The notes below the pieces were generated by a model. The model did no database searches, had not been told where the DNA came from, and saw nothing but the letters and a program-made list of their open reading frames with translations. From assembly GCA_963833985.1 (NCBI GenBank), contig CAWIAD010000001.1, positions 3,136,001 to 3,200,000 of the forward strand: 64,000 bases of DNA. Direction: 5' to 3'. Positions 30,191 to 36,620 of this stretch are shown one piece after another. The DNA is from an uncultured Planctomycetaceae bacterium (GTDB taxonomy: Bacteria > Planctomycetota > Planctomycetia > Isosphaerales > Isosphaeraceae). The position numbers and the translations under genes were made by a program. Within the stretch, counting starts at the first letter, position 1. Each line of letters begins with the position of its first letter.

Positions 30191-30401
30191 AGACGGCCTC
30201 GAGCAATGGGCACGGGGCGGGGCCGCAGGCAGGCAACATGTCGATTATACCCGGCGTGAGACCGCTGCAAAGAGGTGACGCACCCGTGCGCGTCGGGCCG
30301 ACACTTCCCCGGCTCATTGCGCAATGGCCAGACCATCTCACACGAGCACGCGACCGCTGGCCCGACTCGCCCGAAATGGCTTCGTTCCGTCCATCCGGCA
30401 T

Positions 30402-30465
30402 CGAAGCCATCGGACGCTAACCCTTTGTCTGATTGAAGTTAAACATCCATTTTCGATTGGCTTCG
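30402..30465 (+). repeat. 64-bp element bounded by CGAAGCCA/TGGCTTCG, copy 1
   Basis: Gapless 46/64 match (hand count) to the reverse complement of 33435-33498. Confidence 0.75.
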
Positions 30466-30700
30466 ATTTTCGCATTTCTTTCTCGGGATGTCCTGAGGCG
30501 GGCCAGAAATCACTTGGGCCAGCGCGACGCCTGGCTGCGGAGGCGCCGCGCTGGTTTGAACTATCGACCGAATTGTCAAAGAGTCTCGGCACAGTGCCGT
30601 CTCATTCAGTCTACGATCGGAACGGCGGGCGCCTGCGAGATTCCCCGCGGTTTGCTCTTCTTGTGCCGGCGCGGTCTTATCACTTGACCTGAGGTGCTCC

Positions 30701-30811
30701 ATGCGCTTGCCCTTCTCGTCGGTTCACTGTGACCTGGACCCCTCCGACGACGCGGCGGTGTGCACGCGCGAGATGCTGGAACTGCTGGCGGCGCGGGGGC
30801 CTCGGGCGTGA
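30701..30811 (+). pseudogene. Truncated glycosyltransferase-like N-terminus (36 codons)
   Basis: GAGG RBS; MRLPFSSVHCDLDPSDDAAVCTREMLELLAARG resembles planctomycete GT4 N-termini (recognition from memory); stop lies inside a REP-like hairpin. Confidence 0.55.
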
Positions 30812-31022
30812 GCCCGACCTGCACGTCGCGGCATCGCACGCAAGGCCTCTGCGCTGGTCCGCCGGTCCCGGCGTTCGTGGCGCATGGCCAGGTGCGCCAG
30901 CGCCCTGGCGTCCGCGGCGTATGGCCACGTGCGCGAGCGCCCTGACGTCCGGGCGCATGGCCACGTGCGCGAGCACGTGGTTTTCACGGGCGCAGCCCCC
31001 AACCTCGGGCGTGAGCCCGACC
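30800..31022. repeat. Two identical 20-bp REP-like hairpins enclosing a 36-37-bp tandem triplet
   Basis: CCTCGGGCGTGAGCCCGACC at 30800-30819 and 31003-31022 (stem TCGGGC/GCCCGA); GCGYATGGCCASGTGCGCSAGC units at 30880, 30917, 30953. Confidence 0.85.
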
Positions 31023-31045
31023 AGCACCGCGCCGCATCACGCTCA

Positions 31046-32098
31046 TCACCTCACCGCGCACCCGCCCAGGTTCGCCAGGTGATGCCGGCCCAGACGCCCG
31101 GCCACGTCCCGCAGCCGCTCCCGGCTTGCCGCGAAGAACCGGCCCAGCAGCCGACCCCCGGCCAGCTTCAGCAGCCGTGCTTGCCAGCTCTCGGCATTGC
31201 TTCCCAGCCGCTCCAGGATCCCGGCCAGCTCCGCCGAGATCGCCGCCTTCCCCTCGCGAAACAGCCGCCCGGTGTACTCTACCAGCAGCAGATAGCTGCC
31301 CAGCGAGAACCCCTCGACCATCCCTTCGCGACCGAGACCGCGACCCGAGTCCGAGTCCAGCCTCCTGCGGTCCTCGATCGGGCACAGCCACAGACCCTCT
31401 TCCAGCCCCTCCGCCGCTTGCGACCCCGCCACGCTGCCCGCCTTTGCGGCGTTCAGGTCCTCGGCCCGCCCCTGCTCCTGAGCATGCTCGACCCGCTGCT
31501 TGATCGACGTGTGGGCACTCGCCTCGGGCACCTCGGCGATGCCCGCGGCCACCGGGTTCAGATCGATGTAAGTGCAAGTGGCCAGCAACGATTCCTCATC
31601 GAGGATCGCCACGCTCTGGAACCGCCCCTCGAAGAACGCCCCGCGGGTGTTCTCCTCGCGGTTGGCCATCCGCGACAGCGGCTCCTTCAGGCACTTCATG
31701 AACCAGCTCAGGCTTTGCAGCCGCTGGCGTGCCATCACCACCCACTTCACGTCTTTCAGCCGTTCCTTGACCCACGCCTCCGAGATCGCAACCGCCCGCC
31801 GCGCCTTGTCGCGGGGCGGAAAGAGCCTCCCCCAGCGGCGAACGACCTCCTCATCCGACCACCCGGTGGCGACATCAGGATCGAGCCGCACCAGCAGGTG
31901 CAGGTGGTTGTCGAGGATCGCGAACCCGCCCACGGCGATCGAGAAGATCTCCGCAAGTTCCCGCAACCGCCGTTCGATCCATTCTTTACGGTCGAGATGC
32001 CCCTCGCCCAGTAGGAACGCCCGCCGCACACAGCGGCTGACGCAGTGATACCAGCGGGTGACCGACGGATCCACCAGATGCGCACGGGCAATCGTCAT
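31046..32098 (-). mobile_element. Intact HUH/Y1 (IS200-like, RAYT-type) transposase, 350 aa
   Basis: WYHCVSRCVRRAFL, HUH motif NHLHLL, GAFFEGRFQS, catalytic-Tyr motif YIDLNPV. Confidence 0.9.
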
Positions 32099-32099
32099 G

Positions 32100-32308
32100 C
32101 ACGGACCTCCCAGCTAGATCCGCACAAGCTACACGATCCTACTGCCCGCGTCAAGATTGCATTGCCTGTCCTTTCTTTCTTTTCTCACGGACCTCCCAGC
32201 TAGATCCGCACAAGCTACACGATCCTACTGCCCGCGTCAAGATTGCATTGCCTGTCCTTTCTTTCTTGTTTCTTTCTTGTGTCCTTTCTTTCTTGTCCTT
32301 TCTTTCTT
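32100..32308 (+). repeat. 82-bp tandem duplication (period 86) of the transposase upstream end, plus GTCCTTTCTTTCTT micro-array
   Basis: 32100-32181 equals 32186-32267; 14-bp units at 32254, 32281, 32295 and a partial at 32268. Confidence 0.92.
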
Positions 32309-32309
32309 T

Positions 32310-32548
32310 GGATCGCCGGCCATCGCGGCAAGAAGCGAGCCGCCGTCGCGGTCGCGCACACGATCCTCGTGATCATCTACCATATGCTGATGGAGGGGAC
32401 CACATACCGGGAGATCGCCGAGACCGAGGCGGCCTGAACTCAGTGAGGACTCGTCGCCAACGAGGGTCGCATCCGATACCACCGCGAAGGTGACCACGTT
32501 CGTCGTCCGCCTAGTCCTTCGCCCAGCCTGGCGGGATTTTCTGAGCAG
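32310..32548 (+). pseudogene. IS110-family transposase C-terminal remnant with probable right end
   Basis: IAGHRGKKRAAVAVAHTILVIIYHML..YRE (stop 32437); TTTTCTGAGCAG at 32537-32548 resembles ends seen in this IS110 subgroup. Confidence 0.7.
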
Positions 32549-32574
32549 TTCAGTTTTCGGGCACCTCTGGCCGA

Positions 32575-32793
32575 TGCCGATTGCTCCTTTCGTGGCCGGC
32601 CTCGCGGGCGCGGGGTCAGGTTAATGCCCAATCGGGTCGCGACTCCCTCAATCCAGGCGGGAGAGCCCAGGGGGCGTCCGGTCCGCAGCGACTCACGTAC
32701 GGCCGTCAGTTCGTCCGGCCTCTGTGCCGACCGCAACTTTGCCCGCCACCGCCGCCTACGCTCCGCCTCGGACGGGCCGAGATGCTCCCACTC
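32575..32793 (-). pseudogene. C-terminal remnant of a second-type RAYT-like transposase
   Basis: EWEHLGPSEAERRRRWRAKL..ELTAVRESLRTGRPLGSPAW..RLGINLTPRPRGRPRK. Confidence 0.7.
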
Positions 32794-32795
32794 GG

Positions 32796-33130
32796 AAGAA
32801 ACGAAAGGACAGACAACGTGATCCTGCCCGGACCGATCTTGCAGCGTGCGCTGGTCTTGCCAGGAGATCTGCAGCGTGCGCTGGTCTTGCCAGGAGATCC
32901 GGTCATGACACTCGCACCTGGGTATCTGGGGATACGTCTGTCGCTTGCTGGTACCACTGCATCACCCTCGAGACACCCTTGAATTTGCTGGCGAGGCGTG
33001 ATCCAGACGTCGCAGCGGAGCCGTCGAATGAGGAGGTCGTGCGGCGCCAGGAACGGCTGCGGAAGATTGCCGGGCGGTTGAACGTGCATCGTCTGGCAAA
33101 CCTGGACGGTCGCGCGGCACGCTGGGAAAA
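32796..33130 (+). mobile_element. Miniature, internally deleted copy of the 31046-32098 HUH transposase with its upstream end
   Basis: DTSVACWYHCI / LLARRDPDVAAEPSNEEVVRR / ERLRKIAGRLNVHRLANLDG match the start, middle and end of the intact protein; homologous 5' region; 30-bp tandem duplication 32840-32899. Confidence 0.85.
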
Positions 33131-33434
33131 ACGTGCCGCAGCCTCGGCCACGCACGTGCTGCCATGACGTCGCCTGGTCGGCTGGACGGTCAGAGCGCTG
33201 GCGGCTGCGTACGTGGCCACCGACCCTGCGCTGGTGGATGGAGAAATCGGCAGGCGGGTTCGCAGGATCGCCGGTGTTTCCGCCGTAGACTGAATAGGAC
33301 GGTGCAGTGCGGAGGCTCCTTGACAATGCGGCGGATGGTTGGGACCAGCGCCGGCCCGGCGACGCGCTGGCTCCGCTCTTTTGCAGACCAGATGGCACGG
33401 TCCACCGGACGTTCTGCATTCACAACTCGGGGAA

Positions 33435-33498
33435 CGAAGCCATTGAAAAAACGATATATAACTCGCACGCACCAAAGGAGTAACGTCCGATGGCTTCG
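33435..33498 (-). repeat. 64-bp element bounded by CGAAGCCA/TGGCTTCG, copy 2 (inverted relative to copy 1)
   Basis: Same length as 30402-30465; first 15 and last 8 bases identical. Confidence 0.75.
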
Positions 33499-33820
33499 GT
33501 TGTATGGTGCCGAGAACGAACCCAGATTCTCCCCTGCCTGAGGGCGGACGCGCGACACGACCAGGTGGGCCAGTAAACGGCACGAACGCCGGGGCCAGCC
33601 GCGCTCGGCGGACCAGGGGCTGAAGCCGCGAGGGCGTGCTTTTCACGCGGAAAACCCGCAACGAACCCAATTGCAAATGGAACTGCAAGTCCATGATAAG
33701 CAAGGATTAATGGCCAGAAAGCACCATCGGAAGGGACCGAAATCGAAGCCAATTCGGCAGCAATCCCAGGACGTGCGACGGACGGTCTCGAGGAAGATCA
33801 TCAAAGGGAAGACGGGGACT

Positions 33821-33896
33821 AAGATTGCATTGCCTGTCCTTCTGGCCTGGTCCTTCTGGCCTGCTCCTTCTTGGCCTGCTCCTTCTGGCCTGTCCT
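33821..33896 (+). repeat. Orphan copy of the transposase end motif followed by a 13-15-bp micro-tandem array
   Basis: AAGATTGCATTGCCTGTCCTT (33821-33841), then GCCTG(N)TCCTTCT(T)G units at 33832, 33845, 33859, 33874 and a partial at 33888. Confidence 0.9.
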
Positions 33897-34242
33897 CCGC
33901 ACTTCCGAAGACCCACGTGTCTCGTCGCCGCTTCTGCTCGCTGTCGATCAATAAGCTTCAACAAAAAAGAACAAAGGCAACGGAGGGTTGGGACGGAACA
34001 GGGACGGGAACGGGGCTCAAGTAAACTAGAAGCGGCCATGTTTCCGCTCTCCGGTTCCTGATGTTCTTGTTCCGAACCCCTGACGCTTTCGCTCGGGTCT
34101 CTATTCCGCGCGGCCGTCGGTTGAACGTGCATGGCTCGCAGGCGATAATCCACAGCCAGGCCAAAGCGGGCTGGGGTTTTGGCCATCGATCAAATCGGCC
34201 GCCTCGTCTCGCAACTCGTCCGCATCTGTCGCGGAGCCGCTC

Positions 34243-36620
34243 GTGGACCGACTGAAGATCCTCCTGTTCGCGGCCAATCCGTTCAGGGACTTGAACCTGG
34301 ACGAGGAGATCCGCTGCATCCGGGAGGCTGTGGGTTCCGCGGGCCAGCGCGGGATCATGCTGGTCCCCTTCACTGCCACCCGGCCTGGCGACCTGATCGA
34401 CGCGATCGACGACGAACGTCCCCAGGTCGTGCATTTCTGCGGCCATGGAATCCGCTCTCGGGGCGACGCGCAACGGGACCACGACACCAACCGCTCAGGC
34501 GATGAGCAAGAAGCTGTGCGCACCGGCCGTGACCTGATCGCCACGCCTGAGAATCAAGGCGCCATCCTGGTCATCGGCGAGGACGGCCGGCATCGTCCGC
34601 TGGGTCCTGCCGGTCTGGTCGACCTCTTCGAGCATCACAGCGAGATGGTCAAGATCGTCGTCCTGAACACCTGCTGGACCGAGAAGCAAGCCCAGGCGAT
34701 CGCCCAGCACATCGCGTGCGTCATCGGCACGACCCGAGAGATCCGCGACGAGGCCGCCCGGATCTTCTCGAAGCGGCTCTACAGGGCGCTCGCGAGGGGG
34801 GAACCAGTCGCGACCGCGCTGCAGAAGGCGAAGACCGATATCAAACTGCACGGATTCGACGATCAGGCCGCCATCCCTCAGCTCTGGACCAAGCCAGGCA
34901 TCGACGCCAGCCGGGTCTACCTCGTGCCGCCGGAACCGAAGCCGGAGCTGAAACCGGAGCCGAGGCCAGAGCGGGAGCGACAGCTCGAGCTGAAGCCTGT
35001 CCAGGAGCTGGAGATCGAATTCGCGCCGCAGGTGGAGCTGGGTCAGGATGAGAATCCGGCTCCTTCGTCTGTTGTGATAGGAATGCATGGGCTCGACAAC
35101 TCGATAGCCGGGATCCTGGCATCGACCCAAGAAGAGCAAGTGGAGGATGAGAGAGCCAAGGAGGATGACAACGGGGTCTTCGCGAGCGAGAAGCCGAGAG
35201 ATCCCGTGGACGACTTCGGGAACGTATTTACTAAGTTTATTAACTTGTTAATCCACATCTGTACATATTTCATGAAATTGTTCCGCGACACCAAGCAGAG
35301 AAAACTGGTTCAGGACACCAAGCAGAGAGCGGAGGAGGACAGGGAAGCGGAGGACGACGATCAGGACTATTTCGAAATTGAGGAACTGAGGCTCGCACGA
35401 GGAGGACGCCGAGACCGACAGCGATCAGGGGGTCTTCGCCCTCATTGAGGCGCTGAGCTCGCACGAGGAGGACGCCGAGACCGACAGCGATCCGTTCCAG
35501 CACATTCCTCCGGCCTGGACAGTAAACGCCAAGCAACTCGAGACGCAGGCCGAAACCACGCCGGCGAAGACGGCGCCACCGAAGAAGACGTTCTTGGAGC
35601 GCCTTGGCCTGAAGCGCATGTGGGATCAGGGAGTGGATGCGGCGGCAAGACTCGTGCTGGCTGTACTTTCAACCCTGCTCATCATCATCGTACTCATCAT
35701 AACATCCGTGATAATAGTCGTTCAACTGGACAGAACGCTAAGTTCCAAGAACGACCCGGCCAAGAAAGTGCTTGAAAAGGGCGACGAGGAAATCCCAGGC
35801 CCCCCAGCCCCCGCACCGTCCGCTGCCGGTCCCAAGAAGTCCCTGCCGGCCGAGACAAAGACCGCGCCTGCGGTGAACGACGCCGCCTGCACACAGCTTC
35901 GCGAGGGCTTCCGGGAGCTGTTCAGCAACAGTCGCACCGTTCGGAATCCGATCGGCGTGGCCCTGGTGCTCAACGAGCACGTCACCGCGGCTGATCTGGC
36001 GGGCTTCATCGAGCCGGCCCGGCGGGCCAGGGTAGCGATCACGGCGGTTATCGCCGTCCCGGTACGGATCGGGAAGGATCGTCATTTCGTGGACCTGACG
36101 GACTGCCCCGTTGCCGTCGGCCCGATCGCGGTTGGAACTCTCTATGAGGAACTCAAACGTGCGCTCAACCGCGATGACGTGGACATTGTCGTCTTCGTCG
36201 CTCCGCTCAAGGAAAGTCTCGTTGGGAATCACGCAGACGGCCAGGAACACTCGTCACAAAGGGAGCTGATGCGTGTTTTGAATGCGAGCCTCGAGGCGAC
36301 GATGGATGTCTACGTCTCGTCGACGAAGAAGGATGCCGTGGTCTGGCGCAGGAAATCTCCTGGAAGGCAAGCCCGCTGGTACAGAAACGGGCAAAGCACC
36401 GGATGTGTCACCCAGCCCGATGGAGACATTGTCAATAACGAGTCAAATCACCGCCATGGGCGGCAGGGACTGGGAGGACTTCGCCGAATTCCTCCAGTGC
36501 GTGAAGTCCCGCACCCAGCCGAAGAACGCGTTCAGCAACCCGCAGGCTGCTCCCGCGCCCAGGCCGCCGGCTCCGGTTTCGAAGCAGACCGAGACGGCGA
36601 AGAGCACGAGGGACGAGTGA
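34243..36620 (+). CDS. CHAT (caspase-like) domain protein with acidic repeats, TM helix and C-terminal domain; frameshifts near 35390 and probably 36420
   Basis: KILLFAANP, LNLDEEIR, VHFCGHG, VVLNTC, VIGTTREIRDEAARIFSKRLY; the SSHEEDAETDSD duplication shows one extra G in copy 1; TM LVLAVLSTLLIIIVLIITSVIIVV. Confidence 0.78.

Follow-up and report, generated by a model that had tools for sequence, protein, structure and literature searches.

One-sided nested tandem duplications with a fixed outer break at the ends of HUH/Y1 transposase elements in a planctomycete genome and its relatives

The window analyzed here is a 64,000-nt stretch of DNA from an uncultured Planctomycetaceae bacterium (GCA_963833985.1, CAWIAD010000001.1:3,136,001-3,200,000, forward strand), whose genome is assembled in 2 contigs. 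Between 30.3 and 33.9 kb it holds a pile of mobile-element remains (Table 1), bordered on one side by a gene that we take to be ApbE-like and on the other by a gene for a CHAT-domain protein (34243-35448), which begins right after the array at 33821. The mobile-element load of the genome as a whole is very high, with 171 near-identical multicopy intervals and one 2244-bp family present in ~20 copies. A search of 30200-34250 against Rfam gave no match.

Table 1. Features of the mobile-element pile, in window coordinates; offsets (+) are counted outward from the last C of the motif core
Feature	Position	Strand	Details
Variable downstream region of the full copy	30341..31045	-	~700-750 nt common to two paralogues
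HUH/Y1 transposase gene, 350 aa, subclass 2.3 type	31046..32098	-	H65-L66-H67, Y177
86-bp tandem repeat of the left end	32100..32267	+	81-nt duplication followed by one of 5 nt; break at +9 in each
Inner, original sub-terminal motif of the left end	32153..32171	+	core ends 73 nt from the start codon; faces outward
Outer motif copy	32239..32257	+	product of the 81-nt duplication
Nested older duplications of 11, 16 and 14 nt	32254..32308	+	breaks at +11/12, +11/12 and +9/10; flank from ~32309
IS110-like transposase 3' tail, 42 codons, abutting the element end	32309..32437	+	NF033542 partial match
3' fragment of a TIRYT (subclass 2.1 type) gene	32546..32795	-	truncated at 11 nt beyond the motif at 32807
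Left end of the miniature element	32796..32826	-	variant motif plus 11 terminal nt
Degenerate, frameshifted, internally deleted transposase copy	32905..33167	+	pieces of 72-84% DNA identity matching start, middle and end of family copies; translation
Non-coding repeat, found elsewhere in the genome without the end motif	33250..33824	+	85-93% to two other loci; match stops at 33824
Right end of the miniature element, short piece identical to the 32153 motif	33821..33839	+	
Array at the 33821 end	33832..33896	+	a single exact 14-nt duplication (+10); elsewhere 1-2 base differences have to be allowed

The intact transposase gene encodes a protein whose match to PF01797 is weak (E 2.5e-5), and its scores against NF047646 (RAYT/REP; 39.8 bits) and NF033573 (IS200; 15.4 bits) lie below the respective cut-offs of 80 and 55. 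No match was found by sequence search of the PDB, nor to any Pfam HTH, the domain that subclass 2.1 carries at its C terminus, while C-terminal helices do appear in a structure model built from 96 sequences (pLDDT 93). The closest fold to this model is that of E. coli TnpA-REP (4er8; Z 12.5, rmsd 3.3, 163 residues aligned). The protein carries NHLH at 64-67 and YIDLNP at 177, the HUH and Y motifs of subclass 2.3, with 112 residues from HUH to Tyr and a helical insert modeled at 74-126; H65, H67 and Y177 are each conserved in at least 90% of the 96 sequences. A TS motif is present at 197-198, and F156 gives FE where subclass 2.3 and the 96-sequence consensus have WE. Judged from published features, the protein is consistent with HUH/Y1 subclass 2.3 as described by Quentin et al. 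2018. Besides it, 12 near-full copies at 84-96% protein identity and many fragments are present in the genome, and both catalytic motifs (HUH and Tyr) are intact in 12 of the 13 near-full copies. By the names of the relatives, close ones are planctomycetes, and more distant ones occur in marine Gammaproteobacteria, with Alteromonadales at 32-37% identity. The family comprises 1,606 representatives at E up to 1e-30; none was found in the viral contigs searched.

Upstream of this gene lies a sequence motif with the core TGCCTGTCC, which is related to the TIRtron sequence GGGGWSAS (the last 6 of 8 positions agree; the first two are usually A). The 21-mer that the first-pass annotation placed at 32153, 32239 and 33821 is indeed identical at all three positions, all on the plus strand, and an 18-mer of it matches the window 3 times against 0.04 expected; the minus-strand variant at 32826-32803 differs at five positions, all transitions as read by eye. 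Among 80 related loci the core was found upstream of the gene in 71, the other 9 dropping out of the left-end survey with no upstream sequence (3) or no core (6). The motif had been expected 50-80 bp upstream of homologues, and the distance from core to start codon was 73 nt at 13 of the genome sites listed. A weight matrix for the motif found 52 sites in the genome versus 3 in the reversed genome. These results support its proposed role as the cognate end site of the Y1 family, sub-terminal and facing outward. The annotation had also pointed to HUH/Y1 enzymes such as IS200/605 TnpA and RAYTs, which nick and rejoin ssDNA at short guide-defined sites. Folding of 112 ends revealed no hairpin or guide structure of the IS200/605 or REP kind (mean z -0.17 and -0.23 on the two strands), and the GTAG/GTGG hairpin foot of REPs is absent from the motif consensus of these ends.

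Both arrays that had been annotated beside the motif, at 32254-32308 and 33832-33896, are present. The single ~14-bp period ascribed to them is not: 32254-32308 has none, its units being 11, 16 and 14 nt, with the 16-nt unit copying across the junction of the 14-nt unit. The 86-bp repeat belongs to the same series, and the whole left-end array (32172-32308; offsets from 32171, the last core C of the inner motif) can be unpicked into five exact events of 5, 81, 11, 16 and 14 nt at +9 to +12.

As annotated, the element ends abut truncated neighbors. The TIRYT fragment is cut at 32795/32796 relative to two intact genome copies (96.8% and 91.6%), and the IS110-like 42-codon tail starts at 32309; its NF033542 match is weak (positions 315-342 of 343, E 1e-4, far under the curated cut-off), and no second copy of it was found in the genome. 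A miniature element of 1.03 kb is bounded by the motifs at 32807 (minus) and 33839 (plus), and its right-end piece is joined at ~33824 to an unrelated repeat. A 90-nt piece of this non-coding repeat occurs in 35 genome copies, 14 of them within 1.5 kb of a family gene, and the repeat family, seen at 33250-33824 and 30341-30700, contains GAAGCCAAT-like words. Two further repeats were observed at the locus: a palindrome-rich region after the stop codon (30872-31030) holds a 37-bp tandem repeat (2.8 copies) whose copy number varies among paralogues, and a 30-bp tandem duplication, not anchored at the tip, lies inside the left end of the miniature element (32835-32899).

No outward motif was found within 3.5 kb downstream of the window's full copy, and most copies in the source genome likewise lack a recognizable right motif. 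We considered that the whole family might be one-ended, and dropped this idea after an outward-facing core turned up downstream in 42 of 65 related loci (mostly 150-330 nt past the stop; inward in 6 of 65; 15 of the 80 loci were left out of this survey); it holds true only of most copies in this genome. In a second set, drawn from metagenomes, the downstream core faced outward in 24 of 49 loci and inward in 1, and in complete isolate records a related core was present at 18 of 24 ends. Because most related loci have the outward downstream core, the element would normally be two-ended and inverted, as the TIRtron is; subclass 2.3 Y1 elements thus appear to be bounded, typically at both ends and on opposite strands, by a linear, sub-terminal, outward-facing motif.

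Where an independent neighbor copy exists, the element stops at +9, +10 or +11. No target-site duplication was found in 35 two-ended elements, a result limited by the incomplete unpicking of their arrays: the longest shared word averaged 3.54 for cognate and 3.51 for non-cognate pairs. One empty allele in Pseudoalteromonas (~78% identity) shows insertion without large loss and is too diverged to resolve the target. Three copies (contig C2:802235, 6223724 and 4164377) are followed by common DNA of 1.8-2.0 kb (93-97%), which stops close to another palindromic repeat and may have been captured as a passenger. Several smaller arrangements were also noticed. Miniature elements of 52 bp (C2:510432-510484, 3032841-3032893 and 3035175-3035227) consist of two outward motifs, each with arrays, and two of them sit in or beside broken transposase gene copies. 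Motif pieces of ~21-25 nt at C2:3201056, 1453087 and 4645509 are fused to internal positions of transposase genes and match the length of the window's 33821 piece; they may represent a minimal end or a second break site. At C2:1453097-1456720, the element end at +9 is the exact start of a segment duplicated from C2:1400133, which suggests an end-mediated rearrangement. In one isolate record (L094, near position 1115), a left-end motif is apparently split by another insertion sequence.

The window's arrays proved to be one case of a family-wide footprint. What had been described as ~14-bp repeats are nested tandem duplications of 5-557 bp, whose outer break is fixed 8-14 nt beyond the motif and whose inner break is free on the element side. 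The break had been placed at the GCCTGTCC motif itself; it lies 8-14 nt outside, set by distance rather than sequence. Exact tandem duplications of at least 8 nt with a junction at +6 to +18 were present at 38 of the 112 ends that were left or solo (source genome alone: 18 of 41). The controls gave 3 of 600 for sites with the core only, 4 of 1120 for shuffled tips, and 2 of 112 and 0 of 111 for windows placed inside and outside, respectively; the link between arrays and motif, scanned for across the genome and its relatives, was thereby upheld. The loci in these counts are related, not independent; the other 74 of the 112 ends have no exact duplication of this length, and many arrays, that at 33832-33896 among them, do not unpick fully by exact matches. 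Right ends carried duplications in 12 of 40 cases (0 and 0 in controls). In the second set, which may overlap the first (L177 repeats L043) and from which identical contexts were removed, they occurred at 19 of 73 ends (controls 0 of 73 and 0 of 58), and the interval between -30 and +7 was free of junctions. Since peeling restricts the offsets by design, claims about position rest on unrestricted junction profiles; in the first set, junctions are almost absent between -17 and +7 and most frequent at +8 to +12.

The footprint is also seen in complete isolate records, at 4 of 18 motif-bearing ends, with exact duplications of 11, 153, 178 and 205 bp; the largest case, 557 bp with a break at +11/12 and one mismatch, is in the source genome. 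Ordinary multicopy elements in the same assembly had duplications at 2 of 342 ends. A blind search of the genome returned 35 heterogeneous ladders, 27 of which match one of three Y1 end motifs: 15 lie at the motif described here, 7 and 5 at the two others, and of the 8 untagged ladders four resemble motif variants by eye.

Two of these motifs belong to other Y1 families. TIRYT ends in the source genome bear the same footprint at 28 of 51 sites, peaking at +9 to +11. A third Y1 family (39% identity, ~460 aa; C2:2518801-2521175 and C2:550942-553076) has its own GGGTGGCC-type end motif, with 53 sites in the genome; duplications within +6 to +18 were seen at 20 of these sites. Very long nested ladders, at +9 to +11, occur at both ends of the TIRYT-type genes at C2:2426978-2428400 and C2:3098582-3100100.

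The duplications are markedly one-sided: leaving out 7 outer motif copies and 2 of 60 events, element-side duplications were present at 34 of 105 sites and flank-side ones at 3 of 105. Their junctions need no homology, microhomology being at chance level in the first set (1.41 against a null of 1.17, 0.72-1.72, 58 events), at right ends (1.08 against 0.91, 13 events) and in the second set (0.92 against 1.14, 24 events); junctions with zero microhomology numbered 20 of 58 in the first set, which is the lower limit of what the null gives (27, range 20-34). No common dinucleotide was found at the unambiguous inner or outer breaks, which are mixed in sequence (20 events in the first set, 11 in the second). 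The newer units sit nearest the motif, and 7 of the 26 consecutive pairs have a newer unit that was copied from across the older junction, from which it follows that the events succeed one another on the integrated element; this bears out the earlier idea that repeats are written repeatedly in place. Two isolates share an orthologous insertion, and their versions of it differ by a 121-bp duplication at the end.

How might such a footprint arise? HUH enzymes hold a 5' end on their tyrosine and free a 3'-OH. We consider it probable that the strand is nicked outside the motif, extended by the host from the flank 3'-OH, and re-ligated to the 5'-phosphotyrosine, again and again in place. The transposase would bind the motif, nick the strand on which the order is flank, ~10 nt and GGACA, and remain joined to the element 5' end through Tyr177. 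A host polymerase would extend the freed flank 3'-OH by displacement over a variable distance, the enzyme would re-join the new 3' end to its 5'-phosphotyrosine, and replication would fix the extra copy; since the motif survives each round, the cycle could repeat at the same distance. Together, the nick, a displacement synthesis that varies in length and the re-ligation would account for all the features described above. Such rounds would amount to abortive steps of a rolling-circle-like transposition, and attack by a 3'-OH from elsewhere would yield the clean junctions to truncated neighbors, the solo ends and the one-ended copies. As copying from a 3'-OH duplicates DNA 3' of the nick, the element-side polarity would place the nick on the strand running from the flank into the motif's complement, ~10 nt before it, an assignment that assumes HUH chemistry plus 3' extension. 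At the window's left end this would put the nick zone between about 32179 and 32183. That the transposase itself does the cutting is likewise something we infer from sequence patterns, and the model offers no account of how a Y1 enzyme would open a duplex without helicase or hairpin.

Of the other explanations, the one closest to this model invokes joining between sister strands at the replication fork, where the 5'-phosphotyrosine is attacked by a nascent 3' end, or a fixed cut on the motif strand is ligated to a cut at a variable position in the sister, so that unequal exchange results with no in-place extension. It yields the same geometry and is likewise homology-free, and it draws on two published points: IS200/IS605 Y1 enzymes act on single strands at forks (PMC6006769), and the activities of TnpA-REP in vitro include cutting at a distance and recombination between sites (PMC3333891). 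However, in its variable-cut form a dinucleotide such as CT would be expected at the inner break, and the breaks were mixed (20 and 11 events); we regard this explanation as unlikely. The GC skew of the genome, we note separately, is too irregular to assign the replication strand. Less likely still is that the transposase only nicks, with the nick becoming a break and host end-joining or slip-and-fill repair writing the duplications. Host end-joining is available in the source genome, as it encodes Ku; Ku was present in 3 of 5 array-bearing genomes searched, this one included, and some junctions hold 1-2 unexplained bases. Yet break repair should scar both sides, whereas the duplications are one-sided (34 versus 3 of 105), exact copies reach 178-557 bp, and 2 of the 5 genomes, whose assemblies may be incomplete, yielded no Ku.

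Replication slippage on a pyrimidine-rich tip, either spontaneous or at a protein-stalled fork and in any case without catalysis, would accord with the T/C-rich first 10 nt beyond the motif and with the few junctions that have 3-6 nt of microhomology. We nonetheless find it very improbable, given chance-level microhomology in three sets, shuffled tips and core-only sites without arrays, one break that stays fixed while unit length varies, and the same ladders at tips that are not T-rich (L028-L040 and L050). Assembly or base-calling stutter at repeat boundaries, finally, is scarcely credible. The arrays have no raw-read cover (one run, with 5% of words and 4 of 30 bins), and the 2-contig assembly does not state its read type; against this, of 342 ordinary repeat ends in that assembly only 2 bear the footprint, it recurs both in assemblies with contig names of the short-read-assembler type and in isolate records that are complete (4 of 18 ends with the motif), and 27 of the 35 blind-found ladders match one of three Y1 end motifs.

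Taken together, these results establish that the window observation is real. The first-pass annotation had not known the behavior as a described system, and this stands in part: the protein class, a related end motif and the BIME model are in print, as the accessible portions of three papers attest (PMC6006769, PMC3733652, PMC3333891), while a description of the footprint was not found. For the ends of subclass 2.3 and for the one-sided, fixed-distance footprint, the literature searched held no description, though subscription journals, ISfinder or supplements may hold one; nor did it contain any reported activity for subclasses 2.1 or 2.3. Multiplication of repeats in vivo by RAYT-like enzymes is still an open question, and the footprint predicts a substrate, a strand and a cut position, so that a first assay can be designed directly. 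If the nick-and-extend model holds, it would describe a HUH transposase working without a hairpin, provide a dated record of enzyme activity at each locus, and explain odd repeats, at least 27 of the 35 heterogeneous ladders in the source genome. A nicking enzyme with a set cutting distance and homology-free re-joining might also be put to use as a tool.

A broader reading, which we put forward tentatively and hold to be somewhat less probable than its opposite, is that subclasses 2.1 and 2.3 together form one unrecognized mechanistic class: hairpin-independent HUH enzymes that would bind a linear duplex motif, cut 8-14 nt off it regardless of sequence, and mobilize the element by transferring a 5' end from origin-like ends on opposite strands without target duplication. 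Their abortive cycles would leave a time-ordered, heritable tape at each tip, and one-ended events would carry kilobases of neighboring DNA and seed solo ends and miniature elements. If true, the footprint would document in vivo, for the first time, the nick-extend-religate step that has been put forward to explain REP/BIME amplification.

How do these elements compare with known systems? In the portions of Quentin et al. 2018 available (PMC6006769), subclass 2.3 is described as multicopy and recently spreading, without identifiable or REP-like flanks and with undefined ends; its members are ~325 aa long, with a median HUH-to-Tyr distance of 110 that stems from a 55-aa insertion, and carry WE and TS motifs. 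The family described here resembles that account in its spacing of 112, Y-x-D-L-N-P, TS, long C-terminal tail and several diverged copies per genome, and departs from it in its planctomycete hosts, its defined ends, the presence of duplications, and F156 for the W of the class (PMC6006769, same portions). The word 'tandem' is absent from the main text of that paper. The TIRtron, whose TIRYT corresponds roughly to subclass 2.1, likewise has a Y1 gene flanked by inverted sub-terminal sites, which also occur solo, as dimers and in clusters, and its GGGGWSAS agrees with our motif at 6 of 8 positions; unlike the present protein of 350 aa, TIRYT is of another subclass and ~240 aa long (PMC3733652, in the parts accessible). 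Those parts of Di Nocera et al. 2013 note dimers and clusters, and fixed-break duplications, a cut site or a mechanism were not found in them (PMC3733652). As for the inverted ends, they are seen in relatives and in the miniature copy, not in the window's full copy or most genome copies.

The closest solved fold to the transposase, as noted, belongs to the TnpA-REP/RAYT enzymes. Figure 7B of Ton-Hoang et al. 2012, part of whose text was available, depicts a nick, polymerase extension and an attack on the first Tyr-5'P that adds a BIME unit (PMC3333891); that model shares the chemistry proposed here but has a second cut at CT, and no such site was seen in our elements. REP systems, according to the accessible parts of two papers, have GTAG plus a hairpin, a CT or CA cut, whole BIME units and a single-copy gene (PMC3333891, PMC8266576). 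Our elements, in contrast, have no hairpin, no dinucleotide rule (the inferred breakpoints are mixed in sequence and do not follow the CT/CA cleavage of the REPtron), arbitrary unit length, a fixed distance and a multicopy gene.

With IS200/IS605 TnpA (IS608, ISDra2) the family shares the HUH/Y1 fold and the lack of a detected target duplication. At the left end of IS608 the cut lies 5' of the recognition site, as we infer for this element. It differs from IS200/IS605 in having no sub-terminal hairpin, inverted ends on opposite strands, Y---NP rather than Y---Q, 350 aa as opposed to a short TnpA, and copies 84-96% identical at the protein level, not ~99%.

IS91 has one fixed and one variable end point. 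The same holds for ISCR, Helitrons and Replitrons as far as the accessible text goes (PMC10288648), and the present elements are alike in this respect; moreover, copies without a right end that share 1.8-2 kb downstream are what one-ended transposition would give, a likeness to IS91 and Helitrons. These systems use other protein families, IS91/ISCR elements having an IS91-type transposase together with oriIS and terIS ends, and Pfam and fold place our protein with Y1_Tnp/TnpA-REP rather than with IS91-type transposases. Unlike in IS91/ISCR, Helitrons and Replitrons, both ends here are origin-like and, in relatives, inverted (42 of 65), while the variable end point loops back to the same end.
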